DNA of 64,000 bases from Cyanidioschyzon merolae (lineage: Eukaryota), in NCBI GenBank assembly GCA_000091205.1, contig AP006500.2; one strand, written 5' to 3'. Below the pieces are notes generated by a model that did not search any database, was not told where the DNA came from, and saw only the letters and a program-made list of their open reading frames with translations. Both the position numbers and the translations under genes were made by a program. Numbering within the stretch: position 1 is the first letter of the stretch; every line of letters begins with the position of its first letter. Positions 2,983-61,677 of this stretch are shown piece by piece.

Positions 2983-4075
2983 TGGCCAACAGCGCCCGCG
3001 GTATATATGCGAACGAAACGGCGAATAGAGACCCTACAGGCTGTCGTACGAGTAAGTCGCCAGCTGTCCATGCGGTAAGCGCCAGTTGACACCTCGGGGC
3101 TATTTCGATTCCGCACCCGCAGACATTGATCCGTCTGTATTGGACCGGATGTCAAACCGGTAGCATGGGAGCTAGGATTTTCGATACGGACGCGACGGCA
3201 ATCGCATGTTAGTCTGAGCGTTGCTCCGCTTGTGCGAGCTCTCGAGACAGACTCGGATACGAGAGCTGGTACCCGTCTGCGATGGACCCGCTTGGACTGC
3301 TACCTTGCACCGGCGCTCGCGGGAGATAGGAAACTAGAATCCTATCTTTCTGTCAAAACCTTCCTGGAATTCCCTTGGGGTGCTTGATTCTATTCAGCGT
3401 TCTTCAGTCTGGAACTGGCGGGTGCCAAAGTGTTGCTGTTATTCTGATAGTTTCACTCATGCAGCAAAGGCGAAGGCCCTCTCGAAGACGCAGCAATGCT
3501 CCGCGCTTGCCGTCTGGGCGCTGATCTCTCCCCCCTCCATTCTAGACAATTACCGATGCTCTTGGGATTCGCTCTGGCCATCGCTTCTCGCGGGGCCAGC
3601 TCAGGGCTTGAACGACAGCGCGGCCTCAGCAAGTTGGGTTATTCTCGTGAAGGCAAGTCGGTTGATTGCATGCTGCACGCGCTACTATTCCGTACGGCAG
3701 AACGAGCGTTCTAAACCAGCGCCTACGGGTCGCCTTTCGAACGCTGCAATTCCTCTCTGGTGACCTGACAGGAGGGCTCACCCAAGATCTCGCTTGCTCG
3801 TAGGGCTCTCAGGGCCGCGCCACTGAATACTGACGCAGCCCACTCCTGCAAACTTTGACGATACAGAACCTGCGGCCTTTGAGGCTTATGAAGCGTGCCC
3901 CGTGGGGCACGCATTCTGCATTTGCGTCGTGACTCCACAGCAGGGCAGCCGCCAATGCAAACAGCCCGTAACCATCGGGCTCGCGTGTGCGGCCTGTTAC
4001 CGCACGGTTAGCCTGTCACCAGGAGGCAAAAACACTTGTCAGGCTCAAAAGATGCATTGCAATCTTCATTTTGTT

Positions 4076-5452
4076 CCCGCCTTTCGATCGTTTCCCGAAT
4101 GTTCGCTAGAAACACAGCTGCAATATTCAAAGTGCAGCAATAACGGCGAATGGATTCATGGGTAGTTCTATGCCCCTCGGTTGTACTATCCGTAGGGATC
4201 CCGTCGACTCCCTGCCGCTGGCATTCGATACGTCACCGGGATCAAGATGGTTCGTGACGCCCTCATACGCGGGTTCGTAACATAGCCGATATCATCATCT
4301 CATTCAGTCGCACGCGCCTGCACTCTTCTGTTTTCCTCAAGTATAGCATGCTTGAATCATGCATTCTTCAAGTTTTCGATATTTCTCCTTAAAGGCAACT
4401 CGAGGGCGCAGCAATGCGTACAGCTGGGTGGACAGCGAAAAGAATCGCAACGACTTCACTTGAAGACTTTGTCACATGCTCATATCGAAGGCTGACTACA
4501 ATTGTCAGGTCAGCTAATCGCATCCGTCCGAGAAGGAAATCCGCCCGTCCTTGAGACAAGCGGCAACGTGGCGTTCACAGCCGGCGAGATAACGCTCACG
4601 GCATACGTCCCCAGAGGCTTCGCTCGCTTCCGTACACACCGAAGAAAATCGGAGACTCAGACCTGAGTTATCGCAGCGACCGCGCCAGATAGAGAGTCTG
4701 GCACCGCCTTGCACGGAGGAAGCGTAGACGGATCGAAGTTTTCTAGAATTGCGCTCCAGCCTGCATTTTTGCCTCGCGGTACATGGTTCACCACGAAAAG
4801 CTTCCCGTTCCACGAATCCTCCATCGAATGCGACACTGTGCACTGGCTTGCGCTGGCTTGCACTGGCTTGCGCTGGCATTGCCCCGCACTGCCTCGAGCC
4901 GACGCCCTCTGTGTGGTACGGCAACGCCGTTCTGCCTCCGTGCAGCGACCGCACTGGCGCTATAGGCGTCATTGCTGTCGCTTTCGGCAGGCACTAGGCA
5001 CACACGATAGGACGTATGAAACGACTAGAATATCCGGGAAGTAGTGTGGGTCATGGAACTTGGAGGCAGGGCGTTCGATGGCTACTTCACCGCACACAAA
5101 CAAAAAGAAAACAAAAAGTGCACAATCGGAGAACGCTGGCCTAAGTAAGCATTTTGTCAGTGAGAAAAATCCGACACTGTGTTCGCTGAGGGCATTGCGC
5201 TGATGCAACCTGCCAGCGAAGCGCACGGCAGCGAGCCCGCAAACTGAGAAGAGCATCGTGGTAAGCCTTCGATACTCGTCAATTGCATGGAACGAGCGAA
5301 AACGCGAGCTGTACGACGCCTCAAAACGGCCCTCCGAGGAAGAGGAGCAGGAGCAGGAGAGGCTTTGGTGGATATACGGGAACACCTGACCACAGCCAAA
5401 AGTCATCGATGCGAGGACGCACAGAGGCTGTATACAATGAAGATGAAAATGG
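4076..5452. repeat. Direct repeat copy R1 (1377 bp), >99% identical to 14734-16110
   Basis: Identical ORF translations (4514-4972 = 15172-15630; 4969-5406 vs 15627-16064, 1 aa difference) and direct sequence comparison; boundaries where identity stops (left ...ctttcgatcgtttcccg; right ...gaaaatggcaagcgaa). Contains the microrepeat cactggcttgcgctggcttgcactggcttgcgctggc (4845-4881). Confidence 0.85.
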
Positions 5453-6360
5453 CAAGCGAAGCGCAGGCTGCAACAACCGTCCGCGCAACAAGTGCGTCGA
5501 CAACTACCGAACGCAGTAAAATCGGGACTTTACCACCACCGCCATCAATATCCTGCGACTGCCGAAAACCTAGCCAGAGAAGATAGGAACAGGAAGCAGT
5601 CACAGAAAAAGCCCGCACACGCTAGTCTCGATGCCAGCTCGAAGACATCCAGCCGTTCAGATTCGCACTCGAGCGCGCAGCGAGCACCGCAGCGTATACC
5701 TAGCGGACACGTATGTCGGACCCGATCCAACTGGAGGCCCCTGTGCGCTGCTTCGTTGCTGGCGGGCAACGCGCAAGCACGCGCGCGGCGCCGTTGACCG
5801 CGAGATCGACGGCGGGTATCTCACGCGTTGCGCGAGCGGCTGTATGCGATGGCGCGCGCATCTGCAAACGCCGCCTCTGAAAATATCTGAGGAGCGGGGC
5901 GTACACGCGGCGCCGAGCGTCGCGTCTCGAGAACGTTTCGCGGGCGATCCTGCGGCGAAGGCGCGCTTCGTCTCGACATCGCTAGATGCTGTGCGCTGCA
6001 TTATCGAATGCAGCTGCGCGTCAGCGGTGATATCTTGTAGCTGCAGTGCTGTGACGTGAGCGACCAGTTGCTCGATATTTGCGTGAGACTTCGAATCAGC
6101 GCTATAATATCATAGTTGTGGAGGTTGACGGCTTCTTTGACTGGTTCGAGGGGTGAGCGACTACATCTACTAGAAGCAGTGAGCAAAGTCCGGACGGCGG
6201 CGGCGGCGGCTTCTAGAACCTCGGTACGCTGAGGGTTTGGCACGCGCAGGCGCAACCGAGCTCGAGAACGCAACTCCTGGGGCGAATTTGTGCCAAACTT
6301 TTTAGGTTGTTTTCTTGAGTTTAGTTCGTCTGTGGGCGGCTAGAGTGTCGGCGCGGTACG

Positions 6361-13912: not shown

Positions 13913-14733
13913 CCGGCGAGACCGCATGAGTGGCGCTGCGCTCCCGCGTCCGCGACGTGCCGTGGTGCGAGCGCGGGGCGCGATCGGAATGGGAAATTGG
14001 ATAATGCAGACAATGCGGACAGGCTGCGCGGGCGTCGATTTCTTGCTGATCCCGTGGCGACGCGTGCGGGTTGTGTGGAAACGGCAGCGGGCAGTCATGC
14101 CGTGCACCGCATGCCGTCGCTCGGTGTTGGCCATGGCGGGGCGGTGGCGCACGCGCTCCTCATTGATAGGGGATTCGCGGTGGTAGAAGACTCGGACTGG
14201 GTGTTATGCTGGAGTGCCCAGTTTGAAGTCACCTGCCTGAAAGTGCGTCTTCGCTCGAAAACTGCGAATTCCGAAGGTGTTTCTGGTGCCTAGATGTCCA
14301 ATCAGCAGTGGTTACGATGGAGCTCAGTTTCTGAGTGACCTGGTGCGCTGACGGTAGCGTGACGTCGCTGCATTTGGGCCTCGGCCATGGTCTCTTCGAA
14401 GCGCAAACCTCCTTTATGACTGCGTAAGCCAGTCTGTTTGAAAAGATGTGTGGAATCCGTTTACCTCCACGGTCCACAGGATGAAAGACGCTGATATACC
14501 CACTTGATGTTTGACATTGCGGTACAAGACAGACAATCGCAGTTGCCTTGCTCCGAGGCTGCATAGTCGGTGTGCACGGTGTCGTCCGTGGGAATTTATC
14601 ATGATGCACTGATTGCGACAAATATCGCTGCGGCTTATTGGTACACGCGGATGAACAAAATGCAGCTACTTGGCCCCAAGCTCTGCTGAACCCATTTCGG
14701 ATAAAAATGGAACACTGAAATGCTCGTAGTGTT

Positions 14734-16110
14734 ATTTTCTTTCGATCGTTTCCCGAATGTTCGCTAGAAACACAGCTGCAATATTCAAAGTGCAGCAATA
14801 ACGGCGAATGGATTCATGGGTAGTTCTATGCCCCTCGGTTGTACTATCCGTGGGGATCCCGTCGACTCCCTGCCGCTGGCATTCGATACGTCACCGGGAT
14901 CAAGATGGTTCGTGACGCCCTCATACGCGGGTTCGTAACATAGCCGATATCATCATCTCATTCAGTCGCACGCGCCTGCACTCTTCTGTTTTCCTCAAGT
15001 ATAGCATGCTTGAATCATGCATTCTTCAAGTTTTCGATATTTCTCCTTAAAGGCAACTCGAGGGCGCAGCAATGCGTACAGCTGGGTGGACAGCGAAAAG
15101 AATCGCAACGACTTCACTTGAAGACTTTGTCACATGCTCATATCGAAGGCTGACTACAATTGTCAGGTCAGCTAATCGCATCCGTCCGAGAAGGAAATCC
15201 GCCCGTCCTTGAGACAAGCGGCAACGTGGCGTTCACAGCCGGCGAGATAACGCTCACGGCATACGTCCCCAGAGGCTTCGCTCGCTTCCGTACACACCGA
15301 AGAAAATCGGAGACTCAGACCTGAGTTATCGCAGCGACCGCGCCAGATAGAGAGTCTGGCACCGCCTTGCACGGAGGAAGCGTAGACGGATCGAAGTTTT
15401 CTAGAATTGCGCTCCAGCCTGCATTTTTGCCTCGCGGTACATGGTTCACCACGAAAAGCTTCCCGTTCCACGAATCCTCCATCGAATGCGACACTGTGCA
15501 CTGGCTTGCGCTGGCTTGCACTGGCTTGCGCTGGCATTGCCCCGCACTGCCTCGAGCCGACGCCCTCTGTGTGGTACGGCAACGCCGTTCTGCCTCCGTG
15601 CAGCGACCGCACTGGCGCTATAGGCGTCATTGCTGTCGCTTTCGGCAGGCACTAGGCACACACGATAGGACGTATGAAACGACTAGAATATCCGGGAAGT
15701 AGTGTGGGTCATGGAACTTGGAGGCAGGGCGTTCGATGGCTACTTCACCGCACACAAACAAAAAGAAAACAAAAAGTGCACAATCGGAGAACGCTGGCCT
15801 AAGTAAGCATTTTGTCAGTGAGAAAAATCCGACACTGTGTTCGCTGAGGGCATTGCGCTGATGCAACCTGCCAGCGAAGCGCACGGCAGCGAGCCCGCAA
15901 ACTGAGAAGAGCATCGTGGTAAGCCTTCGATACTCGTCAATTGCCTGGAACGAGCGAAAACGCGAGCTGTACGACGCCTCAAAACGGCCCTCCGAGGAAG
16001 AGGAGCAGGAGCAGGAGAGGCTTTGGTGGATATACGGGAACACCTGACCACAGCCAAAAGTCATCGATGCGAGGACGCACAGAGGCTGTATACAATGAAG
16101 ATGAAAATGG
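14734..16110. repeat. Direct repeat copy R2 (1377 bp), >99% identical to 4076-5452
   Basis: See R1; a few single-base differences (e.g. 4183 a vs 14841 g; 5284 a vs 15942 c). Confidence 0.85.
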
Positions 16111-16814
16111 CAAGCGAAATATGCATCGAAACATCTGCATGCGCATGAAATGTGTTGAAAACCACTGGAAGCAGCAAAACAGGGGCTTTAAATCTGCAGT
16201 GAACATCTTCCGATCGCTAATGATGGAGCTGGAAGGAACGGAGACACCGTCGTATCTCAAGTCGGAGCTCGAAGAGAAGGAAGAAAATCAGCCGCGAAAA
16301 AGCCCTTAATGCCTGTTGCTGACGGCAATTGGAGGATACCTAAAATTCAGTATTCACGTTCGAGGTAGAATAGTGTATCCGTTTCATTTTATTCTGAGAG
16401 AGGTCTAGCTCATGGCAGCTATAGAAAATGACTCACTGACTGGCTGCCACTTGCGATGAAGAGCTTGCATAGCAGGTTCTTTTCTAGATCGCAACACCTA
16501 CTGCAGGACCAGAGCTTGGGACAGTATCGTGAATAAGTGTTGTGCTTTGAGAAAGCGGCTGCACGGGCTCTGTACCAGAACGACAAGCGCGGTGAGCCCG
16601 CTACGCTGAAGATGCATTCGCGTTCGAAGCAGCGGCACACACAAGTGCGGTGCTGTCGCCCGCTAGCGCTGGGAGCGCTCCGCAAGCACACTCTTGAGGG
16701 CAACTTTCCCATCACGAGTCGAGTACTTTCACGCTTGCACAGTTCTAGAGCCGCGAGAGGCAGCACGCACAACTTCGTGGCCGCTGAAGCAGACGGCGCT
16801 CCTCGAGTTCGAAG

Positions 16815-19499: not shown

Positions 19500-20039
19500 T
19501 GATGCACGTGCCGTTCTGATCAGCGTTTCAGTACAGTGGGCGTTGTATCCAGGGGTGTAGGTAGCGCTCAGCCGCGTTGCCAAATGTGGTGGCTTCTGTA
19601 GCGGCTTCGATGGATTGTCCTTGCGAGTACGAGGTGCTGTCCGCATGAACGCGCACGCTCTTCTGGAGTTGCTGTTTGTCGAAGACCTGTTCGCCCCTTC
19701 TTTGGCATATGTGTTCGTGCAGTATCGATTTTCTCGACGTTGCGAAGCAGGGCGGATGTGCTGCTCTCATGCTGCTCGTTGCGGTAAACGTATAGATCAT
19801 CATGCAAGCTCAGGGGTGTTTCTTCGTTTTGAGCGTGCATCTACAGGTTGCAGGTCAGGAGGCACTCTCAAAACAGGTGTGCCTGGTGAAAAGCGCGCTA
19901 CGATGCCTGGAAGAGAGTAGTGGAGGCTTCCGGTCTCTTTCGGATCTTCGTGGCAGACTCAGCGCCCGGACGGTCGCTGAGTCTGCCAAATTGTTTTCTT
20001 AGAGTATGGTTGTTCAGTTTGTGGAATCTGGACACATCG

Positions 20040-21590
20040 CCGCTACATCCATTTTACATTAAAGAGGGACACGTTCTCGAACGCTGACGGACACGCTCAA
20101 ATTCTGGCCTTTTTTGATTGCCATCATCATAAGCATTTGCAGGATGTTTCTGCGGATGCTTCATTTTCCTCTTCCTTATCTCCGGATTGTAAAACGCAGA
20201 CCTCTACTGTCGCTTTTTTTCTAGTGCAAGGTGTAAAAGGACGTTGTTGGTAGCGCCAAATGCCCGATTTCGTAGTTTTCCGCTGTTGTCGAAGCTTGTT
20301 ACGCACAGAAGGAAGCTGCGATCTACGCTTCGATTGCCGTTTTCATCTTCCTGTGTACAACTTGTCGGCCTGCTTGGCAGCGATGACACTTTGCTATGGT
20401 CAGATGTTCCGGTATGTCTCGTGCAGTAAGTCCTGCTTCTAGGGCCATCCTATGATTCTTGAACGCTCGCCCTGCAGCTCGGTAGAAGCTTTGGACGAAA
20501 AAGAGGGCTTTGCTCGATGCCTTCCTATTTTGTCGTGATCGCTATCGTCTCATACGATCACGAGCTTCCTCTGGAAGATTCCCTGGACGAGGACTCTGTC
20601 CGCTGCGCATGGGAGCGCATGCTTTTTCACTAGAGATGGGATTTGCGGAACGCGATGTTGTCTATGATGAAAAGTACCTGAAAGAAAATCTACGCTGCAG
20701 AACAAGTCCAGAAATTTCGATCCATCTACGTGCTCTTCGTCGAATGCTGCATCACGTTTTGCATTGCAAGCGATCGTACCGATGGCTGAATTCCAAGTCC
20801 AGGACCCTTTTCCACACAAGCAGAAGAGAAGGAAGCCTCCGAGAGCGTATTCAGTGATGGGATTATGGCGCTGTCGATTGCTGTTTCAAGGGCGGCCATG
20901 ACGAGAGTGGAATTTGTCCTTCGAACAGAATCGATTGTTAAACGTTAGAAATTAAGTGGGCTTTGAGCCTAAGATTGTGAATAGGTTGTCAAAGGGCGAC
21001 GTCGAGTATTTTTTTGCCGTCAATGCAATGGCGTGAGTTGGTGCGTCTACTAGTTGCCTCGAAACAGGGATATCGCAAACTTGGGGAATCTACGATTCGA
21101 GAATGCTGCACACGATGAACGGAGAATCGGGGCTTGGACGCATGCACTGGATAATTATATAGATTGCATGGCGAAGCCTTGTCCAATGTCATTGCAAATT
21201 ATGCGGGTTACGGTAAAGTAACCAAATCTAGCGGCGAAGCATACATTGCGCGACTCCGAAAAGACGAGCAAGCACTCCAAAACTAAGAATGAATTCGTAA
21301 GCCCATAATCTTGCATTTTGAATGTCAAGTATATTCATCGGGAAAAACGAAAGGAAACCACAGAGCGCGCTATTCAGTATTCCATTTTCATCTGATGTCG
21401 GTGAAGATATCAGAGCTAGGTCCCGGCGATCAACAACGTTTTGCAAAACCCGAACATTTTTGTTCATCATGTTCGATTCTGTGGCATGACAAACGCCGAA
21501 GGCGTCATACCCATTTGCGTCTGCTGGAACAAGCGAGTCTCTGGGAAGGCGCTGAAGTCTCGTACCCTGATCGTTGGCAGCGATCCCTCA
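20040..21590. repeat. Dispersed repeat block, copy A (about 1.5 kb), diverged colinear homolog of 30500-32100; directly abuts Fanzor remnant
   Basis: Multiple colinear matching segments at roughly 75% identity and constant offset about 10.45 kb: catcatcataagcatttgcaggatgtttctg vs catcaccataagcgtttgcagaatgtttctg; aagctgcgatctacgcttcgattgcc vs aatttgcgatctacgcttcgcttgcc; gaaagaaaatctacgctgcagaacaagtccag vs gaaaggaaaatccagactggagaacaagtccag; ttacggtaaagtaaccaaatctagcggcgaag vs ctacggtaacgtcaagaattgcagtcgccaat; lower GC than flanks. Confidence 0.55.
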
Positions 21591-22400
21591 TCCAGGAAGC
21601 GCTGACTCAACTGGCCCATAATTTAGGTGCTCAAGGACGCGAAAACGTTTCGCTACCATAGAGTGTACATATATGTCTACTTGCAGACAACTCCCGGACT
21701 GTTTCGACAGGACTCCTGCTATCCTCTTCAGCTTCTCATCGTATACTTCGAGCCCGAGAGGCTGCTCCATAAAGTTAGATAGCCACAGCCCTGCGGGTCT
21801 TGTCTTCAGTACCGCACATTGTCGGATTTTTATGGCGATGTTGAAGTCTCTGTTCACGAACTCTATGCGTTCGTTCTCGCTGGTGGAATTCACTGATACA
21901 AAGAGTCCTCGGACTCGTGCCCTGTATGGCGCCAAAGTCTCGTCATCGTTCCATCGGGCAAACGCCTTTTCTCGACGATCTCCTCATTTCTTCTTCGTCC
22001 ATTGTTCTTCTTCTTCGCTCGAGAGTCAACGAGAAGAGGATTTTTTGTTGTTTTTCCTGCACCCGGCGATGCCGACCCCCCTAGGATTCCCGACTTGCAT
22101 GTCCATACTTTCCCCTGGTTTTTTTATCACTTCAAACGAAAGCACTTTGCATGCGTCCGCGGTAAGCAGCGAAAAAGCATTTGATGACATGCACCTGAAT
22201 GCGGAACACTTTTCAGGGCAAAGACTGCGATGCGATAGCGATCAGCAGCGCGCGGCGCACCGCCGAGGCGTTACGCATTGCGGAATCGCGCACGCACGTA
22301 CGCATGCACGCATCGTATGGCGGCTTCCCGCCAGGCGATCTCGCTGATCCGTGCATGCCACGCGGACGGCACAGCCGTTATCGCCACATGCAACTGGCAT
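21588..22400 (-). pseudogene. Decayed Fanzor-like (TnpB/OrfB homolog) gene remnant, C-terminal RuvC-III region retained
   Basis: ORF 21588-21935 (minus) RARVRGLFVSVNSTSENERIEFVNRDFNIAIKIRQCAVLKTRP...LEVYDEKLKRIAGV..SGSCLQVDIYVHSMV aligns with the intact copy RAKVRGLLAIVSTTRNGKKRMEFVNRDFNAAINVRRCAVLETRP...VELDEKKLEAVVG..AGRCLHVSWRHLL; nucleotide homology to 59988-60165 visible; upstream continuation has frameshifts and stops (e.g. ..MER then shifted RARVRG; GRMQSAF stop vs GGKQRAFANF). Confidence 0.55.
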
Positions 22401-22424: not shown

Positions 22425-24527
22425 GTGACCAACGAAACTGCTCTATTGACGCTACAGGAACTATTGGTGACGTGTACTAGTAGACACTTTTTCTTTGAAT
22501 CATTGACAGGGGATATGGAGCGATCTCAGCGCGAAACCTGGTCGGAAACCGCCCCGGATATGCATCCGTACGGCGTCGGAGGTCGTGCAACTCGAGACGG
22601 TCGCGACGCTGCGCTCTATGCGCCAACGAACGTGAACGAAGACCATTTTCGGCTGGATGAAACACGCGCACCGTATAGGCGGTATTCAAAACGCGAGTCT
22701 CTGAAACTGCGCAAGGCATCCGGGTCAACCGGAATAGAAGAGCATACAGCGGGCTCTGTTTACGGGATCGGGGATGCTCCAACAGGAACAAAAGGCCGCA
22801 CACTCTATAGGCCTTTAGAGCTGCAGTCTGGGTGCGTGCAATCGGTGGACCTGCAGGAACCTAGCAGCTTTCCAGCTTCGGTGCCGCGTCCACCGGAAAC
22901 TGTGGTTACTCGAGCAGACACTTCGTCTCCCCCGTGGTACGCTTTCCGGAAAATGCACCCGCAGCACGGGCCGTTCCGGCTTCCAGACGCGCCTGTTACG
23001 CTCCACGTAGCAGGTCTGATGCTTATCTGGGTGCTGGTTCTAGTCAGCTTGCGGAACCGTAGCAAATACGGTGTCCAGCGAATCGACCGCGGCGCGCGCA
23101 TCTGGCGCGAGCGCACTCGTGCCAGAGCCAGGCACCATGGAAGCCCTGCATCGGCTGCTTCTCTCGCGCAACATGTGCATCCGTGCTGTTGGCTGCTGCT
23201 TCCTCTGCCGAGGGTAATACGAGTGCACAGCGCGTCTGTATGGCCGACGGTTAAGCCTATCACGACCACCAAGCTCGAGAATCCCGACCATCTCGAACGC
23301 CTCTGGTACCAACGCCATAGTCGCCATTATGCGAATCTGCATGATTTATCCCTTGGTGGGACTTTCATCGCCTTGTCGGATTCCGATGTCGACTCCGAAG
23401 ACTCGGCGATACCGACGATTGAAGAATACGCAGCGCACCGCAGCGAGTTACCTGCTTCAGAACTGATGCAGCATCGATCGGCCAATGTCCATACAATTGA
23501 GAATCTCGCATTCCCTACGGTTTCCGGGCAGATAGAGAAGAATCAAGCGCCATTCCGAGCGCGCCTGGAAAGCAAACCACAAATACAAGTGCTGCGCGAA
23601 AGGAATCAAGATGTACCCGAGAGGCAGTCGAAGTCAGGTCGCCGCAATGGGCCAATGGGCAAACGCGCATCTCTGCCAGCTTCTTGGGACGGCAGCATCC
23701 AGTATTCGTTGCCGATGCCTGGAGCTGACGCACGCGCACCCATTTTCGACAACGCCAGCAGCATCTCCCTGTCAGCCATTGACTCCTCACTTGAAGCAGC
23801 GAACACGGAGAAAGGCGATCGTGTATGGGAGCATCAAGCTTCAGCTGGGGATATCTCTTCATCCTGGCTTTTGCCATCAAGACATTCTGTGGGCGATTGC
23901 TTCGAGGCCAGCGAGCCAAGCCTCGAATTCGAAACCAGTGAGCATGCGCACCACCCCGAACGATTCATTACAGCGATGACTGCTTTCAGTGCGCGTGCAG
24001 GCCCTGTATCCGAAAGTGGCCAGATTCGCGCCAGTGCAGCACTGCCGGATCAGTCCGGCACCGCTACCGAGTGCACTCCGACGGCGCCGAACTCGTTCGC
24101 CACTGGTTCAAAGCAGGGCCTTCCCGTGCTCTCAGCGCTCATATGGCAGGATGCCCGTGTTCGCCGAAACGCAGACGGCAACTGGTGGCTCGAGCGCCAC
24201 GGCGAGTACCGCCTCGAGCACCAACCACATGTTCTAATCCATTTTGGGGACAAGTTCGGTGTGGATGCAAGAATCTTGCCACACAGTCAAGAATCACAAG
24301 TATGGTACGAGTGGTACATCGAAAGACGGCCCGCTAATTCGTCTGTGGAGCAGCCCTCGTACCAGGGTTGTCGCTGGGGTCGTAACAACGCCGGCGATAC
24401 CTGGTACGTCCGGTACGGCACCGATACAAGTGGTTATCACTGGGAGCAGCGTCTGGACTCGAATGGGGCTCGTTTCCAGCTGGAGTGGGAGCAAAGCATT
24501 GCAACAGTGCTGCACGTGCGACTATGA
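22425..24527 (+). CDS. Hypothetical protein (700 aa), no recognisable domain; C-terminal W/Y/G-rich repeats (WYVRYGTDTSGYHWEQRLDSNGARFQLEWE)
   Basis: Long uninterrupted ORF in GC-rich DNA with ATG start; no motif identified. Confidence 0.35.
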   Translation: MTNETALLTLQELLVTCTSRHFFFESLTGDMERSQRETWSETAPDMHPYGVGGRATRDGRDAALYAPTNVNEDHFRLDETRAPYRRYSKRESLKLRKASGSTGIEEHTAGSVYGIGDAPTGTKGRTLYRPLELQSGCVQSVDLQEPSSFPASVPRPPETVVTRADTSSPPWYAFRKMHPQHGPFRLPDAPVTLHVAGLMLIWVLVLVSLRNRSKYGVQRIDRGARIWRERTRARARHHGSPASAASLAQHVHPCCWLLLPLPRVIRVHSASVWPTVKPITTTKLENPDHLERLWYQRHSRHYANLHDLSLGGTFIALSDSDVDSEDSAIPTIEEYAAHRSELPASELMQHRSANVHTIENLAFPTVSGQIEKNQAPFRARLESKPQIQVLRERNQDVPERQSKSGRRNGPMGKRASLPASWDGSIQYSLPMPGADARAPIFDNASSISLSAIDSSLEAANTEKGDRVWEHQASAGDISSSWLLPSRHSVGDCFEASEPSLEFETSEHAHHPERFITAMTAFSARAGPVSESGQIRASAALPDQSGTATECTPTAPNSFATGSKQGLPVLSALIWQDARVRRNADGNWWLERHGEYRLEHQPHVLIHFGDKFGVDARILPHSQESQVWYEWYIERRPANSSVEQPSYQGCRWGRNNAGDTWYVRYGTDTSGYHWEQRLDSNGARFQLEWEQSIATVLHVRL

Positions 24528-30482: not shown

Positions 30483-30499
30483 GCGGGCAAACCTAGTAC

Positions 30500-32100
30500 T
30501 CCTTCACCCATTTTCGAGAAAAAATGGATGCATCCATTTGGTTACCTCGGGTGTGAAAACAGAAAAGTTTGAGTCTCTTTCCGATGTCATCACCATAAGC
30601 GTTTGCAGAATGTTTCTGTAAATGCGGCATTTTCCTCCCCGTATCAGTGAAGTTTAACGTCGCTGATCTCATCTGCCTCTTCACATCCGTTGTCAGCCGT
30701 CGAAGGATGTTGATTCTGGCGTTATAGTCCCGAATTCATAGAATCCGGTTGTCTTCGAATCATAGCATACACAGAGGGAATTTGCGATCTACGCTTCGCT
30801 TGCCACTTTCATCTCCATTGTGGTGAGCATCCGCGCGCCTTTTCCAGAGAGGTCCATTGGATTTGGTCAAGTTTTCTCAGATGGCTGCCTTAGGTCCACC
30901 TCCGAGAGCAGTCGAGCGACACGTTGACGCTTGCTTCATCATCCGGTGCATGTACTTTATAAGTACTGGAGGCCCTGCTGAATACTCTCCTCCGTTCCCG
31001 CACCCGGTGCCGTATCCTACGATCACCGGCTTGTTCTGGGTGATACGCGGAACGCTTGCTCTGACCGGTTCGTGTGCGATCTCACGTTGTTCCGTCGAAT
31101 AGGGATTTGTGGAACGCATTGTCTTCCATGATGGAAAACTATCGAAAGGAAAATCCAGACTGGAGAACAAGTCCAGTATTTTCGATCCGGATACGCTGCC
31201 GTCGTGCAACGCGGTGACACTCACACCAATCCTAGTGATAGTACAGGGCCGAGTTCAAGACTCGTCTTCGCACGAGCAGAAGAGAAGAACACTTCCGGAA
31301 GCATTACCTGTGAATGGTATCGTGTTTATGTCGTATGCTGTCTGGTGGATGTCCGGAAAGAGAGGAGGATATTTCTTTAGAATTGAATCGAATATTTTTC
31401 GTTACAAGTTTCAAGAAGTTTCCCGATGAGCTTTTGAAGAGCCGCCAAGGGACGGCGTCGAGTTTTTCTCCTCGTCAAGACATCTGCGCGAACTGCTGCG
31501 CCCACGAGCTGCCCTGACATAGGAGGATCGAAAAATTGAAGAATCCGTGATTGAAGCATGCGTTACGTAAGGAAAGGAGTGGATTGGATGTTTGGACGTA
31601 CGCATCCGAATATGGTATCGATGCATTCACGCGCATTTTCGTTCGAGGACGTCGCTTATCCTCATGACTACGGTAACGTCAAGAATTGCAGTCGCCAATC
31701 GTTGAAGAGCCACTCCGCGAAGACGACAAGGTATCCTAAAATTACGTATGCATTCGTAATTCCTTAATGCAGCAATTCGAACATCGAGTCCGTACATTTG
31801 ATAAAAGTTCGGAAGAAATAGAGAGGCAGGAACGGCGCGACGATTTCTATGTTGGTTTTCATCTGAAACCAGTGTAGAGTGTCAACGTGCTGACGCGGAG
31901 CCACATTGTTCATGATGCAAGATCGAGGCATCTAGACAGGATGCAATGGATACTCGAGTGCTGCCGAAAGCCAGAGAAGCGTCCTCAATCATTCCAGGTA
32001 TGCATCTGCGTACCTCAGGATTCAAAGCAATGTTTTTCTCAGTAAAAAATGCTGGATCCTGTGATCTTCCTGGGCAATAGGCACATCCCGGTTGCCTGCT
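30500..32100. repeat. Dispersed repeat block, copy B, diverged colinear homolog of 20040-21590; lies immediately upstream of the IBTK-like start; no Fanzor-like ORF detected beside it
   Basis: See copy A; lower GC than flanks; only short ORFs. Confidence 0.55.
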
Positions 32101-40075: not shown

Positions 40076-41276
40076 GGAGCACACGAACAATTGTTTGTCC
40101 CGAAGCAGACACATCAGAATCTCTGTTAGTGCACATGTCTCGACACGATGAGAATCCGCCGATACCGTGGAGTCCTCTGATCCGAATATGATGCACGAGA
40201 CGTCGGGCCTTGTTTTCGCACGATCCGATCGAAGAAGGCAGTTGGGCTCCACTGCTTGCGCACCTGGTGCCGGCGACCAGGGAATGAACTTCAGTGCCGC
40301 CCCAGCGACGCTTCTGGGTTCCACGGGATCCAGATGAGGCTCGCTATTCGGCGCAGAGGCCCAATGGAGACCGCAATTCCTTGGGGTAGAGAGCCTCAAG
40401 CCAGCGCTTGCTCCCGCGCCCAAATACGCCGCCATGGTCGCTATCTGGACGCAGCACTGCTTCGCCAGTTTCTCGCTGGCGTTTGCTCTAGGTTCGCTGT
40501 ACTCCTCGCCTGTCATGAGAATGGAAGCGCTTTTTAAACCACTTTTGTGGAAGCATTGCCACTGCAAAAAAGACGCGACTTTGTTCACGTTGGACGACGG
40601 GCAACGCTCCAGAATTTGCCGAAGACGCATCCATATCGTATCGCTGACGCGAGCTAGATCAGCGGATCCACCAGCAAGTCGCTTTTGCGAGAAACGCATC
40701 CACATGACCCAGCTAATGATCCAGATGCAACGCTGTCCCGTGGATGCTCAACATCGCGTTCGTGGTAGACTTTTCCACGCGTGCACGCGAGACGCGAGCG
40801 ATAAAGTACCTCATAGAACCAGAGTCAGGTAAACGCAGTCCACAGTCGGTGACAGAATTCGTATCGTCCCGATTCTTTGTTTTAGAGATTGCTACCATAG
40901 ACCGGAGATGTCTGATTGTGCGCTTGCCATCGGCGATCGGGAAGGCTTCCATCGTTCCAGCCACCTGCTGGCTCCGCTATCCACTATGATCTTCAGAGAG
41001 ACGGATCATTTTCCACGTTCCTTCGCGCGTCGAGTCTCTGAGAAGCGTCCACCATCGTGCCTGTTGCGTCAGTCCGGGATGCAGCACGCATGCAGAGCGG
41101 CCTTGCTATACCACGGAAGCCGTCAGCTCGGAATTCCCGCTGATGTCGATGCATACCATAAACAGACGGAGGATGCGTTGTGCACCTCCAGAAACAGAGG
41201 CAACACGCTTTGCGTCCATACTCGAGTTTACTGCCAAGGTGCGCACTGATTCGCATCCATCCTAGTCTGAAACACT

Positions 41277-42215: not shown

Positions 42216-44278
42216 GGTCAGCTGCGCGTTGACGTACGCGATAGATAGCGGACGGCGCCGCGCTTTCAGGGCAAAAGACTTGTTTTGACTAGTTCGGCAC
42301 GAATTTGCGTCACTGAGGTGCCTAGGATAGGCGCTATGTGTCGCAGAAGTGTGCAACACCGTGAATTTACTGCGGAGTGCGCACTGCACACTCTGGACGA
42401 AAGCGCTTCCTTGTGACATAACAGAACCGTTGAAATGCGAGACAGGCGGCTGAACTGTGCAAGCACGTGGCAGCGACCAAAGTCCTTTCGTATGAGAAGG
42501 CCAATTACTTGCCGCGATGTGGCAGACGACGACCTCAACGACAACGCTCTGGTGCCACAATGACGGAAGAGAAGCGCATCATGCGCATCGAAGGCTGCTC
42601 TGCGGTCTATGCGGCAGCGCTGTTGTGGTCGCCACGCATTCTCGCGCGCTCCGAGACTATGAATCGAACCCGAGTTTCATGGCGGTGCGCAGCTGCAAAC
42701 GTAACCTCTACATACAGGTATTCTCGTGCAGCTGGTCCAAGAGCGGCATATCCAAAAGTAATAGTGGTTAGATGTGGTAGTTTTGGCGGCTGTTGTTGAA
42801 GCATTTCATGAAGAGACGGAAAAAGCGTTCGACGCTTCGCTTCCCGTTTTCATCTGCTTCGTGGACTGCTTCGAGGCGCTCTTGGACGCAGTAACACTAG
42901 TGTTTCTTTGGGTGTTGCCATATGTGCACGTCACATACCTCGCTCGATCATTGTCCTGTGCCGCTTGAACGCTTGATTCACCGCTCGGTAAGGGCACTTG
43001 ACAGGCACAGCGAGCGCTCCTCGATACCGTCCCGCGTTTATGCACACCGGGGCTGTATCGTACGATTACGGGCTTCTTCCGGGAGATCCCGTCGGCAAAC
43101 ACGCTGTCCGCTGCACACAGGAGCGGACGCTCTTCCATTCGATAAAGTACTTGTGTAACATGATGTTGTCCATGATGAAGGAAGCGCGGGAAATAGAACC
43201 ACGCATCAAGAGCAAGTCGAGAAATTTCGATTTTTCTTTCGCTTTCTTCGGGGGAAACGGTGACTCAGTCTGCACTGGGAGCGACTGCTGTGATGACCCA
43301 CAACCGAGCCCAATACACTTTTCTATGCAAACGGAAGAGACAGGAGCACCCAAAGAGCATGACGTGTGAGAGATATGATGCTGCTGTGGAGTACTGTTTC
43401 GTCGACGACCAGACAGATATGTTGCTTTGCCTCTCGGCCTGAATTGTTTTATCGGTGGGAGAAATTCAATGAACTTTAGGAATGAGCTTGTGAGGAAATC
43501 CTTCAAGCACGAGCTCTATTCTTCGTCGTCGTCAGTCCAGCGGAGCGACTTGCTGCACCCCCAACTTGCCCGGTAACCGAAAGAACGAAAACTTGATGAG
43601 TTTGCGTGATTCGAGCAATGCTTCACCTAAGGAAACGAAACGAATGGATGCTTATACCTATGATTTAGATAATGATATCGGTTATTCATAAAACCCTATT
43701 TCGAGTGTATTGCGATTTAGCTTGATTCTAGTTCTGGTATACATGCCAGCGGCAAAGCGCCAAATGAGCCCTTCCAAAAATGCGACGAAACACATCAAAA
43801 TACATATGACTCGGCAATGCCTTATCGCTGCACATGTATTGTCGAGGCTGTCACTGTAAGAGAAAGCCCCTAACAATCGACACACAGGAACAGAGCGACC
43901 AGTTCAGTGTTCCACGGGAACCAGACGCTAGTGTAGCCGCGTGGCCCCTGTTAGCGTCCACGCGCCTGCAGAGCGCCATGCGCGATGCCACGTTCCCAGT
44001 CGGTGCACGATCCAGGACGGCCTCCTGTTTGTCCTGGTATCCTGCGAGACCTTGTAGCAGCTGCAAGGCTGTGCTTTCAGCTCAGGACAAGGCACGTGAG
44101 CTTCGAAATCCCCTTGAGGTGTGTGTGCTGCGTTTACTTGGTGAAGCTTCTGTTTCTCCAGAAGCATATTGAACGGGTAACTGGTGCAAAGCGGCGCCTT
44201 CATCTGAGCTCGCACTGGAGCGCAGGCTTCGACAGTCTTTTCTCGAAGCACCATACACAACTGAAATGCACTGCGCTC

Positions 44279-52155: not shown

Positions 52156-54792
52156 GTGATCTCGCTTCGATTTACGGTGCAGGTATTCGTTTGTGCAGGA
52201 GGACGGGGAACGCATCGGGATCGAGGAACCTCTTTCTCATTGGACTGCAGCCAAGCAGTCTGGAAGAGGTTCACCTTCTCGTCTTCCCCCATGGCTACGG
52301 AGCAGGATGTTGGTGCTGAATTGCTTGCGTCGTGCAGAGAAAACTGTCGTGCGCTGAAGATTGCTCTTTTACAAACTCTGGCGTCACGAGAGCGCGGAAC
52401 GCATAGCAAGAGTGCTGATCCCAAAACTGAGCTTGTTCAGGAGACGCTACGAAGCATCTTCGATATCTATCGACACAATACCAGTGCCGAAGCATCCTCG
52501 AACAGTACGCGGAATGCATGGGATGCATCTCCTGTTGACGACTCGCTTGTCTGCATCCTGTTCATAGCAGTGGGGCTCCTGGTTCGAACCGAGGGTCTGA
52601 TGCTTGACCAGCCATTCCATGCGATGTTCAGGTCCGTGACGCGAAAGATTCATAGCTTATGGTTTCAGGAGATCGGCAGTGCCGGGGATTCTGGTGTGGA
52701 TATTGAAGCACGAAGTCTTCCCGACACCAGTTGTTTAGTCTACGGCAGTGCACGTGTGGGGAGTCCGGTGTCAAGTAAGCCTTGTGAGGATCATCATGTG
52801 GTCGAGCGTCGCCCCCTTGCGGACAAGCAAACCCGTGCAACGTATGGCCGAGAGACACTGCTGGCAGCGCGCATCAGCAGTCTTGACTCAGCAGATGAGC
52901 CTCAACATGATCCTCGGTTTAGGAGACTGGACCTTGGCACCGCGAGGGATCACGGGGAGTCGAGCTTGCGACGCCGCGGGCGAACTGGAGCGCTGCTCGC
53001 GAGGCTGGGACACCATGGCGAGACGAGTATGCCCCAGTTTCTGACCAGGAAGCTTGTAGCAGATAGAGATGTACTTACCGGCAGCATAGTCGACGCGGAA
53101 CGCGCGGATGCGGCGGTAACTGGAGCACACGCGACATGCACGCCTTTGGAGAAGCGCGTGTCCGAGCCGCATGAACAGGATATACCAGAAGCGCCCGAGT
53201 CCGCAACGCTCCCTCGACAAGCACCAGCCAAACTGGACGGCTTGTTGCAGCCTTGCGATGCGGCATGCGATGAACCGCGCTTCCTGCCAATGAGGAGCAG
53301 CGCTCCACTCGTGGATGCTTGTTCTAATGATGCGTTCAGTTCAGCGCGTCCTCAGCGACTGGCATTCGCTAATCTGTTCCGTGAGGCAGTCGAGCTCCTC
53401 GCTGTCATGTACAAGCAACTCGTGCGCGACATGTATCCGATTTTAGCGACTGCGATGCTCGAGCGCCTGACGCGAAGCCTTCCGTTCGACCACCCCAAGT
53501 GTCGATGCATGCTGCTTCGACTCTTACTCCTGCACGTTGACTTGAATCTCACGGACGACAACCACGACGACAACGGGTTCGCTCTATCCGAGCTCGTCAG
53601 CGGAGCACGCCCATGCCCGCAAGCGAATGCCCGCATCACAGAAGCAGGGGCACCAACGACACCGCCGGGAGCGCAGCTCTTATCTCCGGAGTATGACACA
53701 TGCATCAGCAAACAGATGATGCACCACAGCCACTTCCTGAGCGAGCTGTGGTACTCCTTGGAAAAACATCGCACACGCCTATTGAAAAGCGGTCCACGGA
53801 TCTCCCGGAGCGCCCAGCGAATCGCCGCGAATGCACTCGCCACCCAGTCCGCCGTCTTGTTTGGCGTCGCAATGCCACTCGCACATGCCTATATGCACTG
53901 GCTCGCCAGGTACCTGGACAAGCACCCGTCAGCGGCATTGAGATCTCGTCAGCGATCACGCATCCTGCGTGCGCTGCTGCCTGCATGCATGCAAGTGACA
54001 CGTGTCGCCGTGCACTGCATGACCTCCAGTGCAGCGGCTACACGTGTCACTGCAGTTGGCGGGAGATCGCGAACAGCATCGCCCTCGCCGATCGCCGTGG
54101 ACATGCTTGCGAGCACGCTCCGTATGCTCATCGACTGGAGTCATGCGGAGCCCGGGGCCTCCAGCGATCTGTGTCGCGCTGGCATCTGTGATACGCTGCG
54201 CACGCTCTGGGGCCTCGACCTCTGTTCCATGATCAGTAGGGTCGAATCACCGGCTAGCAGTGTGCAGGCGCTGGGCTTGCCCTATGACTTGCGCATTCTA
54301 TCTCTTGCGCTGTTGGTGAACCTTGTAGAGCAGAGTTCCGAGGCTCGTCATATGCTGTTTGGTCAGTCGCAGTCTAGACCAGGGCTCGAAACGCTCCACG
54401 GGGCTCGAGTACCCGTTCTTACGTATCTGTGGCTGCTGGTGGCTGCATCTGGTACCGGGCTGGAGCACGCCGGCGCACCAGCGGAGGCTTCATTGCCTGA
54501 GGCGGCAACGTTACCTGAAAGCGCGATAACTGCTGCATACAGTGCGCTCGCAGTGGCCTGCGCCGTGGTCCAAGATAGCAACTTGACGGCGTTCGCAAGT
54601 CGTGAGATACCTGAGCTCTCTTTACCTGTTTTGACTAATATTCTGGACAAGTTCGTGCAGCTGATGGAAATAGTGGATGCGGCTGCGGGCTCGTCGACGG
54701 ATCCCGAAGCCGGTCTCCATGAAGCCCTGCTGCGTTTGCTGCAAAGATTGCGTTCGCTGGAGACGAGCGCTACCGACGTGGTGTCACCTTAG
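52156..54792 (+). CDS. Hypothetical protein (878 aa), probably alpha-helical/HEAT-like; no family recognised
   Basis: Long ORF; no diagnostic motif. Confidence 0.35.
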   Translation: MISLRFTVQVFVCAGGRGTHRDRGTSFSLDCSQAVWKRFTFSSSPMATEQDVGAELLASCRENCRALKIALLQTLASRERGTHSKSADPKTELVQETLRSIFDIYRHNTSAEASSNSTRNAWDASPVDDSLVCILFIAVGLLVRTEGLMLDQPFHAMFRSVTRKIHSLWFQEIGSAGDSGVDIEARSLPDTSCLVYGSARVGSPVSSKPCEDHHVVERRPLADKQTRATYGRETLLAARISSLDSADEPQHDPRFRRLDLGTARDHGESSLRRRGRTGALLARLGHHGETSMPQFLTRKLVADRDVLTGSIVDAERADAAVTGAHATCTPLEKRVSEPHEQDIPEAPESATLPRQAPAKLDGLLQPCDAACDEPRFLPMRSSAPLVDACSNDAFSSARPQRLAFANLFREAVELLAVMYKQLVRDMYPILATAMLERLTRSLPFDHPKCRCMLLRLLLLHVDLNLTDDNHDDNGFALSELVSGARPCPQANARITEAGAPTTPPGAQLLSPEYDTCISKQMMHHSHFLSELWYSLEKHRTRLLKSGPRISRSAQRIAANALATQSAVLFGVAMPLAHAYMHWLARYLDKHPSAALRSRQRSRILRALLPACMQVTRVAVHCMTSSAAATRVTAVGGRSRTASPSPIAVDMLASTLRMLIDWSHAEPGASSDLCRAGICDTLRTLWGLDLCSMISRVESPASSVQALGLPYDLRILSLALLVNLVEQSSEARHMLFGQSQSRPGLETLHGARVPVLTYLWLLVAASGTGLEHAGAPAEASLPEAATLPESAITAAYSALAVACAVVQDSNLTAFASREIPELSLPVLTNILDKFVQLMEIVDAAAGSSTDPEAGLHEALLRLLQRLRSLETSATDVVSP

Positions 54793-61297: not shown

Positions 61298-61677
61298 CCC
61301 AGTAAATACCTTTTTTTGCTGACTTTTAGACGTTTGAAATCGAAGATACTCTTCCAGTACGTCTCCCGGTGTTCGCCGGAGAACTCCTCCCTGCTAACAT
61401 CGAACTCCGGACAGATCTCCCTCATGATGCCGTAAAGGACGCCGGAGTCGATAGTTACAAAATGTGACTTGACTTTCCACATTGGAACCACGTTGAAGCG
61501 CTTCCCCATTAGGAAATTCTTCCGTCTCTCCCACTGTTCATTTGTCTCTTCACTCAGCTTCACCTCCGCTTTGCGTGCGAGCTCTCGGTCCAAAAACACG
61601 AAATAGCGCAGGATGAGGCGGTAGTATCTTTCCTTATCTTTTTTCAACGGTGATATCTTGTCTGTTGGATTCACCAA
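61294..61677 (-). CDS. Fanzor-like protein, middle segment containing RuvC-I (VTIDSGV)
   Basis: Frame joins the C-terminal segment if the A7 run at about 61313-61319 (plus strand T7) is A8; ORF-track start is TTG/GTG. Confidence 0.65.

Follow-up and report, generated by a model that had tools for sequence, protein, structure and literature searches.

A stretch of 64,000 nucleotides of the Cyanidioschyzon merolae genome (contig AP006500.2 of assembly GCA_000091205.1; this whole stretch is hereafter the window) contains a block of low guanine–cytosine (GC) content at 20040–21590. A preliminary description of the window reported that this block recurs, diverged but colinear, at 30500–32100, directly upstream of an IBTK-like gene. 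This article deals with the nature and origin of the block. Most probably, it is a copy of an extinct non-autonomous DNA transposon of about 1.39 kb, which would have arisen by internal deletion from a Tc1/mariner–IS630 element carrying a Fanzor gene, multiplied in one burst and decayed neutrally thereafter.

The genes of the window are long, intron-free open reading frames (ORFs). They encode an APC subunit, a CCT-motif protein, a Pumilio protein, an NHL-repeat protein, an RCC1/ankyrin (IBTK-like) protein, a threonine dehydratase, a HAD hydrolase, a CHL1/DDX11 helicase and POT1. Over their full lengths, the dehydratase is 100% identical to BAM82602.1 and the helicase 100% identical to BAM82604.1, both of C. 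merolae strain 10D. Five colinear copies of the 1.39-kb unit are found in the window, all of them intergenic, together with one near-full-length Fanzor1 gene of the CMe-1A type and a remnant of another. Hot-spring metagenome contigs with 99.2–99.8% identity to the window cover nearly all of positions 1–62 kb; the same five copies are present in them, and no empty insertion site was seen among them. The JGI and ENA environmental population that is 99.2–99.8% identical to 10D comprises loci L001, L005, L010, L011, L013–L015, L022, L027, L029 and L032.

Members of the family were sought with a profile built from the copies (nhmmer) and applied to the window and to environmental contigs. L-numbers denote the loci fetched; copies A–E are those of the window, and F, G, H, I, L, N, P and U are paralogs on other contigs.

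Copies of the repeat in the window

The GC content is 0.477/0.480 at 20–22 kb and 0.523/0.482 at 30–32 kb, against about 0.55–0.60 elsewhere, as the preliminary description had noted. The similarity of the two blocks, A and B, is likewise far beyond chance: blastn gives a single high-scoring segment pair (20119–21106 and 30585–31561; 63.6% identity over 1000 bp, E~1e-20), and the profile aligns all five window copies end to end, each with more than 1000 bits and A and B with more than 1100. Identity had been put too high at roughly 75%; over the whole unit it is 60–61%, and 70–76% is reached in local islands only. The left ends originally proposed (20040 and 30500) are right to within a few bases, but the last ~180–220 bp, up to 21590 and 32100, are not shared. 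Nor are there only two copies. Self-comparison of the window showed fragments of A to match 42.8–43.7 kb in the same orientation and 4.1–5.5 and 14.7–16.2 kb in inverted orientation, and a further copy lies just upstream of window position 1 (L011 12738–12932).

Copy A extends from about 20040 to 21410, with its ancestral coding strand on the minus strand and a GC content of 0.47. Profile positions 2–1412 align at 20034–21424, and the ends were refined with the consensus terminal inverted repeat (TIR). The inner part of the left TIR aligns locally to this consensus at 20052–20070, its outer ~12 nt extending to about 20040, and the inner part of the right TIR aligns at 21380–21395 (the GTATTCCATTTTCATCTGA region). 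Copy B (about 30499–31880, minus strand; profile 2–1414 at 30491–31893) has TIR-like ends at 30511–30528 and 31851–31868, and begins about 17 bp from the start codon of the RCC1/ankyrin ORF at 30482. Copy C (42541–43942, minus strand; profile 2–1404) makes up the entire space between the divergent genes for the HAD hydrolase (start 42560) and the CHL1 helicase (start 43985), both identified by Pfam. Copies D (4055–5678; profile 52–1371) and E (14669–16409; profile 12–1415) lie on the plus strand, inverted relative to A; good TIR-like ends are found in E at 16381–16399 and 14695–14713 (TIR scores 26 and 32). An isolated 53-bp match at 41133–41185 was marginal and was dropped.

Copies D and E differ from the others in two respects. 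Alignments show an extra segment of ~320–370 bp (D 4853–5168, E about 15511–15826), situated at the junction of the transposase and Fanzor parts described below and missing from the other copies; it was considered as retained ancestral coding sequence, but three-frame translation gave nothing recognisable. The two copies also share a near-identical tract (4081–5532 and 14739–16190; 97.9% by blastn) that is interior to both, while alignment of the ends shows that outside it D and E diverge to family-typical levels. From this we infer gene conversion between neighbouring paralogs 10.6 kb apart.

Between the stop codon of the NHL-repeat gene (19499) and the left end of copy A there is a near-perfect hairpin of 38 nt at 19951–19988 (GGCAGACTCAGCG…CGCTGAGTCTGCC, 89% complementary), which may be the terminator of that gene or a leftover of another element.

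A dispersed family and its age

A single scan of metagenome contigs with the best-conserved 22-nt island of the repeat returned 31 loci. Profile search found full-length copies in most of them, namely orthologues of the window copies and about ten further paralogs. A Fanzor-centred contig (L002) carries a sixth full-length copy, and three more Fanzor-centred loci yielded two new paralogs. In all, at least 17 distinct paralogs were seen, of which five belong to the window and at least 12 to environmental contigs of this species. This count is a lower bound: the 22-nt motif is exact in none of six copies found independently of it, so that a minority of the family was sampled and the conservation of the island is in part an effect of ascertainment. 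The family probably numbers from tens to the low hundreds.

Pairwise identity among ten full-length paralogs is 51–61% (mean 56.7%, standard deviation 2.0), and each is 68–75% identical to the 1367-nt consensus of the ten. Apart from D and E, neighbours in the window are no closer to one another than to copies on other contigs, and the same holds for the paralogs found later. Because the phylogeny is thus star-like, it indicates one old burst from a single master sequence and not stepwise local duplication. The clustering of copies could give the opposite impression: five or six lie within about 45 kb here, two or three lie within a few kb at other loci (L016, L020 and L031), and D and E are 98% identical. 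Nevertheless, it is exceedingly unlikely that the blocks are simply a local or segmental duplication, or a diverged host gene family. The flanks of the copies are unrelated and the flanking genes unduplicated, the D/E tract is interior to two older and otherwise diverged copies, paralogs are dispersed over other contigs, and the consensus has TIRs and encodes transposon proteins. The preliminary description had named a local segmental duplication that also covers the flanking genes as the observation that would speak against a transposon; the dispersed paralogs and unrelated flanks point away from it.

The most probable reading, a transposon that spread in one burst, can be given a relative age. 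The element was not detected in the syntenic region of Cyanidiococcus yangmingshanensis (L039, 21.8 kb), where the threonine dehydratase is 85% identical to that of the window and two further neighbours are orthologous. It was not detected either in a more distant relative (L034; JGI 3300041539, contig Ga0453586_000344) that retains the window order HAD hydrolase, CHL1 helicase, SpoU methylase and POT1, with a helicase 54% identical and a gap of ~2.1 kb between the HAD and helicase genes. Because the element is missing from this syntenic outgroup DNA, the burst probably took place in the Cyanidioschyzon lineage alone, once this had separated from Cyanidiococcus.

Ends of the element

The ends of the consensus are inverted repeats, AACAGTA-ACCCCTTTTAGAGTAAAATGGAAC and AACACTACACTCATTTCAGATTAAAATGGAAC, which agree at 26 of 31 positions (score 18; the best of 5000 shuffles reached 14). 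Their inner 17 nt, TCAGAWTAAAATGGAAC, can be recognised in individual copies such as E, L, G, P and U; taken alone, per-copy TIR scores are not above chance. A scan of 22,000 tests for target-site duplications of 2–10 bp gave no signal after correction for multiple testing, its maxima being artefacts inside the terminal motif, and an end-gap-free alignment did not recover a duplication either. A TA flanks the assumed boundary at one of six left ends and none of nine right ends, where the position of the termini carries an uncertainty of a few bases and decay has gone as far in the flanks as in the copies. Of the terminal inverted repeats and target-site duplications that the preliminary description proposed to look for, the repeats were found in the consensus and the duplications were not recovered.

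Reconstruction of the ancestral element

Comparison of the copies with one another reveals no coding signal. Translated matches occur in all frames and on both strands, no ORF is conserved, there is no 3-base periodicity, the mean BLOSUM62 score per codon column is about 1.0 in all six frames, and every frame contains stops. Such tests are uninformative where copies decay neutrally, and since these copies appear to have done so from insertion onwards, the tests say nothing about the master element. Neutral decay would equally account for the lack of ORFs and of coding periodicity, for a GC content near 0.48–0.50, and for genes that can be discerned in the consensus only. A majority consensus, in turn, approximates the master because the phylogeny is a star. 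Besides the 1367-nt version, a consensus of 1406 nt was derived from 15 copies, and separate versions from 11 copies outside the window and from four window copies only. The domain assignments that follow were made with Pfam and NCBIfam on the reconstructed consensus proteins, referred to as TPASE (transposase part) and FZC (Fanzor part).

On the strand opposite to the orientation of A, the 15-copy consensus has an open stretch of 336 codons; in 500 shuffles, such stretches averaged 112 codons and did not exceed 215. In individual copies, the longest open stretch is only 110–243 codons, and none has an intact ORF. The last 180 residues of the 336-codon stretch constitute the Fanzor part (...LYRMEQRALARAADRVLAEGIAQKKPVIVGYGTG...DMVDIWEHLTTAKCHRCEG...LCMKCVDNSRKQRNRDFNAAINILRLL...). 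It matches Pfam PF07282 (Cas12f1-like_TNB, the TnpB zinc ribbon) with 31.4 bits (gathering score 26.3) and positions 330–388 of 389 of the NCBIfam model guided_TnpB ('RNA-guided endonuclease TnpB'; E 1.6e-3). The Fanzor/TnpB C-terminal signature [TS][TS]-X-X-C4-X(5,50)-RD, as defined by Bao and Jurka (2013; PMC3627910), is present as TTAK-CHRC...CMKC-VDNSRKQRN-RDFNAAINI, with a spacer of X9. The part is colinear with residues 263–410 of the C-terminal ORF of the window's own Fanzor (23% identity over 150 residues, BLASTP E 3e-5), and its first 40 residues match residues 259–299 of the profile of that Fanzor's family (hhalign E 5.8e-5). Homology thus starts at about residue 259 of the 458-residue C-terminal ORF, and there is no counterpart of RuvC-I (GADTGN-type) or of the N-terminal WED/REC region.

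Upstream of the Fanzor part, in another frame and with a single internal stop, lies a transposase (...LGRLFGVAPSTLCRWN...PLFVAIDETAFDSS...GYAPRGSR...VDGSKFLDLFSSLDFPSGTCFIMDNIAFHKS...YSP...). Stitched together, it matches Pfam DDE_3 with 41.4 bits (gathering score 28.6; E 1.7e-10) over profile positions 3–117 of 146, preceded by HTH_Tnp_Tc3_2 (E 6e-4), a helix–turn–helix (HTH) domain, and it matches the NCBIfam 'IS630 family transposase' model over positions 20–238 of 299 (E 2.7e-17). The first and second catalytic Asp residues are present (VAIDETAF and FIMDNIAFH). At the junction with the Fanzor part there is no third acidic residue, so the catalytic triad is incomplete, as expected for a non-autonomous derivative. 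A guide RNA (omegaRNA/fRNA) scaffold was not apparent in the 3' 260 nt of the reconstruction (z −0.7 relative to shuffles), where decay and consensus errors could hide one.

These assignments do not depend on the window copies. The 11-copy consensus from outside the window reproduces both ORFs and both Pfam matches (TNB 32.9 bits, DDE_3 42.2 bits), and the four-copy window-only consensus has a 209-codon frame with the same motifs. Conversely, the reconstructed proteins map to all five window copies, in the same order and on the same strand, with E-values of 1e-26 to 1e-48 and with frameshifts and stops.

In copy A, tblastn places the decayed HTH and DDE_3/IS630-type transposase at 20597–21338 on the minus strand (TPASE E 1.9e-37 and 3e-13; 37–41% identity, with stops and frameshifts) and the decayed Fanzor/TnpB-like C-terminal module, comprising the RuvC-II region, zinc finger and RuvC-III, at 20099–20657 on the same strand (FZC E 1.3e-29; 48–50%). 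In copy B, also on the minus strand, the transposase lies at 31147–31797 (E 1.8e-31; 39% identity) and the Fanzor-like module at 30565–31101 (one segment pair covering residues 8–186; 49%, E 4e-32). The corresponding tblastn matches are at 43799–43069 (TPASE) and 43165–42783 (FZC) in copy C, at 4201–4840 and 5170–5632 in copy D (E 2.8e-48 and 2.1e-27), and at 14859–15498 and 15828–16306 in copy E. The preliminary description had pointed to similar short peptides in the two blocks, DGSKFLDLFCSVDF in A and SGSKILDLFSSLDF in B, as a possible decayed element-encoded protein. This proved correct: both are on the minus strand, between the first and second catalytic Asp of the DDE_3/IS630-type transposase, that of B within its transposase match. 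What the preliminary description missed is that every block, B included, carries a very diverged Fanzor-like C-terminal module at its left end, visible only after reconstruction.

Origin of the master element

The master element would have been about 1.39 kb long, with TIRs of ~31 nt and two gene remnants on one strand filling the space between them. The first would be the N-terminal three quarters of a Tc1/mariner–IS630-type transposase, with the HTH and the first and second catalytic Asp; directly after it would come the C-terminal ~180 residues of a Fanzor/TnpB-type nuclease, from the strand before RuvC-II through the TTxxC zinc finger to RuvC-III. It is most economical to suppose that a larger autonomous element of the 'Mariner/Tc1 transposase + Fanzor1' kind underwent internal deletion, because the transposase stops before its third catalytic residue, the Fanzor lacks RuvC-I, and the two remnants abut between the TIRs. 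With such a deletion, the transposase gene would have lost its 3' end and the Fanzor gene its 5' two thirds. The derivative, still with both TIRs, would have been mobilised in trans by the transposase of its parent and amplified once. Every copy would then have decayed neutrally by ~25–32% substitutions and survived only between genes; CMe-1A elements would later have landed next to or inside several copies, as by A, and gene conversion would have passed sequence between D and E.

Non-autonomous DNA transposons arise most commonly by internal deletion, which counts against the idea that the master was no deletion derivative at all. It could instead have been a compact element, possibly active itself, with either two overlapping genes or a chimeric protein in which the DNA-binding and partial DDE regions of a Tc1/IS630 transposase were fused to the C-terminal nuclease lobe of a Fanzor. 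The direct adjacency of the two parts, on one strand and from TIR to TIR, would suit such an element; their frames overlap by ~70–80 nt, where a single indel error in the consensus could hide an in-frame fusion, and in copy B a 125-codon open frame connects the transposase motif GSKILDLFSSLDFP with KPVIVGYGTG in the Fanzor part. However, that open frame requires two frameshifts relative to the consensus, the parts are in different frames in both the 15-copy and the 11-copy consensus, and each half is without a catalytic residue (the third acidic residue in one, RuvC-I in the other). A master of either kind therefore appears unlikely.

Several observations weigh against an internally deleted Tc1/mariner–IS630 element. 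No autonomous or longer copy was found in the ~400 kb of the C. merolae genome covered by the search for a parent, so that the deletion step rests on the truncated coverage of the domains. The TA target-site duplication expected for Tc1/mariner–IS630 elements was not recovered. Pfam gave no matches for the individual surviving ORFs of single copies, which means that the domain calls depend on the reconstruction, and a phmmer search of the reconstructed proteins against PDB sequences gave none. For the TnpB domain, the window-only consensus of four copies scores just 12.9 bits; although significant, the NCBIfam scores stay below the equivalog cut-offs; and the frame overlap leaves the exact position of the junction uncertain. 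Finally, indels among the copies are fewer than simple neutrality predicts.

Decay and variation of the copies

The low GC content needs no special cause, because it matches unconstrained evolution from a start at ~50% GC: the equilibrium calculated from the substitution counts (C>T 360 and T>C 343; G>A 342 and A>G 290) is ~0.46–0.48, and the GC content is 0.47–0.54 in the copies and 0.50 in the consensus. Repeat-induced point mutation (RIP) was considered and excluded by a transition/transversion ratio of 0.97, by the symmetry of the changes and by RIP indices equal to those of genes. Structured RNA was rejected as well, as there are no Rfam or tRNA matches and windowed RNAalifold energies are 0 to −4.8 kcal/mol per 160 nt on both strands.

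Each paralog has undergone 7–12 indel events for ~350–400 substitutions. Among strain variants, the density of single-nucleotide polymorphisms in the elements (6.6/kb) is intermediate between that in long ORFs (5.3/kb) and that in other intergenic DNA (7.9/kb); indel sites number two in long ORFs, none in the elements (7.6 kb) and 11 in other intergenic DNA (17 kb). Nine of the ten paralogs are 1338–1368 bp long despite ~43% pairwise divergence. This uniformity of length and lack of indels would be explained if copies of the transposon had been co-opted as functional non-coding DNA, either as promoter or boundary modules between genes or as long non-coding RNA. Copy C, as the whole intergenic region of two divergent genes, and copy B, which abuts a start codon, would be suitably placed. 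Against this, the divergence, star-like and with ~57% identity, affects the entire element and is near to that of unconstrained decay, and the best-conserved island owes its prominence in part to ascertainment. Moreover, neither strand has a conserved RNA structure, the element is undetectable at the syntenic sites of the two related algae, and its orientation relative to neighbouring genes is inconsistent. Co-option is thus quite unlikely, and nothing suggests that the copies are active or have a function at present.

CMe-1A Fanzor copies and their neighbourhood

The near-full-length CMe-1A-type Fanzor1 gene of the window is situated at 59921–62423 on the minus strand, in ORF pieces at 61671–62423, 61294–61677 and 59921–61297, with the motifs GADTGN, VDEFRTS and VNRDFNAAINV. 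The same environmental populations contain 260 relatives with E<=1e-5, the listed ones being 58–99% identical. Just upstream of the RuvC-I motif, at 60835–61214, the gene has four to five tandem repeats of 75 bp, which encode acidic 25-residue repeats (…QEVxDNDFVVDVTKDEDxKEAxPA…) and vary in number between relatives.

Beside copy A, a CMe-1A-type 3' remnant comprising the last ~83 codons is found at 21678–21923 on the minus strand. It has 51% amino acid identity to residues 370–452 (tblastn E 3.6e-20; residues of Fanzor fragments are numbered as in the C-terminal ORF at 59921–61297) and matches 59943–60190 by blastn. The remnant had been recognised correctly in the preliminary description, but copy A does not run straight into it: about 250 bp separate the two, and the remnant lies at the end opposite to A's own Fanzor-like part. 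It is a separate neighbouring insertion and not part of the repeat. An ORF of 224 codons (21673–22347, plus strand) overlaps the remnant on the opposite strand, and a 700-codon ORF without a Pfam match follows at 22425–24527 (plus strand).

Such proximity is common. CMe-1A fragments occur ~250 bp from A, ~24 bp from I, inside N, and within 1.5–4 kb of F, G, H and L, and at three of five Fanzor-centred loci the nearest element is no more than 10 kb away. This could be taken to mean, as had been proposed, that block and neighbouring CMe-1A-type Fanzor belong together in a larger composite element, of which the blocks would be the 3' part and B a deletion derivative. However, the side, distance and orientation of the Fanzor fragment differ in every case. 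None of four near-full-length CMe-1A copies (window 59.9–62.4 kb, L002, L007 and L017) has the block at its 3' end, and by profile search the element is absent from 44–64 kb of the window, including the 3' end of the Fanzor1 gene, and from L001. The 1.39-kb element has its own TIRs, and the two publications concerned (Bao and Jurka 2013, PMC3627910; Nozaki 2007, PMC1955436) describe CMe-1A as a ~3-kb unit without such an appendage. The related suggestion that elements begin with the 3' tail of a CMe-1A Fanzor was rejected, as homology to it is confined to the flank of paralog I (85 bits, compared with at most 24 bits, within shuffle noise, for other flanks). A composite element is accordingly highly unlikely; the other option offered by the preliminary description, a non-autonomous transposon family beside which Fanzor inserted, agrees with the dispersed paralogs, star phylogeny, unrelated flanks and inverted-repeat ends.

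Two loci illustrate the arrangements. In L016 (3896–6650), a 1.4-kb insertion interrupts paralog N at profile positions ~985/1026 and contains a CMe-1A 3' fragment (residues 334–452, minus strand). It is clearly nested, and ~40 profile positions are missing where it joins the paralog. In L004 (1934–2095; also in L009, L019 and L031), a CMe-1A 3' fragment (residues 400–453) lies tail to tail with the Fanzor-like remnant belonging to paralog I, ending within ~25–50 bp of the left end of that paralog.

In ~122 kb of element-bearing sequence sampled without regard to Fanzor, there are seven CMe-1A copies or fragments where ~1.9 are expected; the expectation is based on 253 copies in 16.5 Mb, a published count that may omit small fragments, and the rough Poisson P is about 0.003. 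The co-occurrence is attributed to the great compactness of the genome: few intergenic spots tolerate insertions, both families survive in these, and old copies offer safe sites on which to land. A more specific alternative is that CMe-1A, an RNA-guided Fanzor, used the 1.39-kb family as a platform for homing or landing, in that its guide would direct breaks to a repeated target and copying would follow. We consider this distinctly improbable; if it were true, it would exemplify in nature how Fanzor can assist spread into a family of repeats.

Relation to known elements

The kind of element is already known, both as Fanzor on a Tc1/mariner-type transposon and as non-autonomous deletion derivatives. 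The combination of a Mariner/Tc1 transposase with Fanzor1 is documented in other eukaryotes and in giant viruses (Bao and Jurka 2013, Mob DNA 4:12, PMC3627910). The Fanzor1-carrying Mariner/Tc1 elements PGv-1 and PUl-1 described there likewise have TIRs, a Mariner/Tc1-like DDE transposase and a Fanzor gene with the C-terminal signature. In contrast, the C. merolae unit has both genes truncated and abutting, its copies are dead and ~25–32% from the consensus, its transposase scores best against IS630-type models, and TA duplications were not recovered. Internally deleted ITm elements in general also share both TIRs, a partial transposase ORF, a burst from one master and later neutral decay; the 1.39-kb family differs in its additional remnant of an unrelated passenger gene, Fanzor, and in that a target-site duplication was not recovered.

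For C. merolae itself, Bao and Jurka (2013; PMC3627910) list one Fanzor family only, CMe-1A, whose transposable element class is unknown; it has ~150 copies of ~3 kb, no TIRs and ~80% identity to its consensus. It is evidently the same family as the 253-copy, 3.2-kb WSV486-like interspersed repeat reported in Nozaki 2007 (PMC1955436). CMe-1A resembles the present family in being an old, diverged and dispersed family of the same genome with a Fanzor-type C-terminal module, and copies of the two are often near each other. Nevertheless, the 1.39-kb family is, as judged from sequence comparison, separate from CMe-1A: there is no DNA similarity between the two and only 23% amino acid identity over 150 residues, CMe-1A has neither TIRs nor a transposase and retains some long ORFs, whereas the 1.39-kb family has TIRs and a DDE remnant and is more decayed (68–75% to its consensus, against the ~80% reported).

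According to Nozaki 2007 (PMC1955436), C. merolae also has eight transposase-related 'class II elements', nearest to bacterial transposases with weak E-values of 0.071 to 6e-7. Decayed IS630-like copies of the 1.39-kb family would score alike, although an identity of the two is conjecture. In the literature searched, the repeats credited to C. merolae are a single Fanzor family whose class is unknown, the eight class II elements and many that are unclassified; miniature inverted-repeat transposable elements are not among them. The 1.39-kb family may be among these unclassified repeats, and may account for some of them or of the unnamed 'class II' elements. Its Fanzor content appears to be unreported in the literature searched, Repbase lying outside that search.

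C. merolae is a model 'minimal' eukaryote, said to hold almost no transposons besides one Fanzor-bearing repeat. The present family would add a second, older Fanzor lineage, carried by a Tc1/IS630-type transposon and now provided with a reconstructed ancestor, TIRs and a relative age (after the Cyanidiococcus split, and more decayed than CMe-1A). The current understanding of the Fanzor mechanism is unchanged by it, while the apparent co-localisation of two Fanzor-related families offers a testable lead on Fanzor insertion sites. There is also a more general lesson, namely that coding tests among old copies fail, and that ancestral reconstruction alone shows the former identity of such a repeat.

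Other features of the window

A 58-nt inverted repeat (85% complementary) occurs at 53994–54051, inside the long ORF at 52156–54792. Downstream of the threonine dehydratase gene, positions 40733–40822 are covered by both alignment pieces of the environmental variants L027, L029 and L032, which suggests a polymorphic duplication or rearrangement of ~90 bp at this point.

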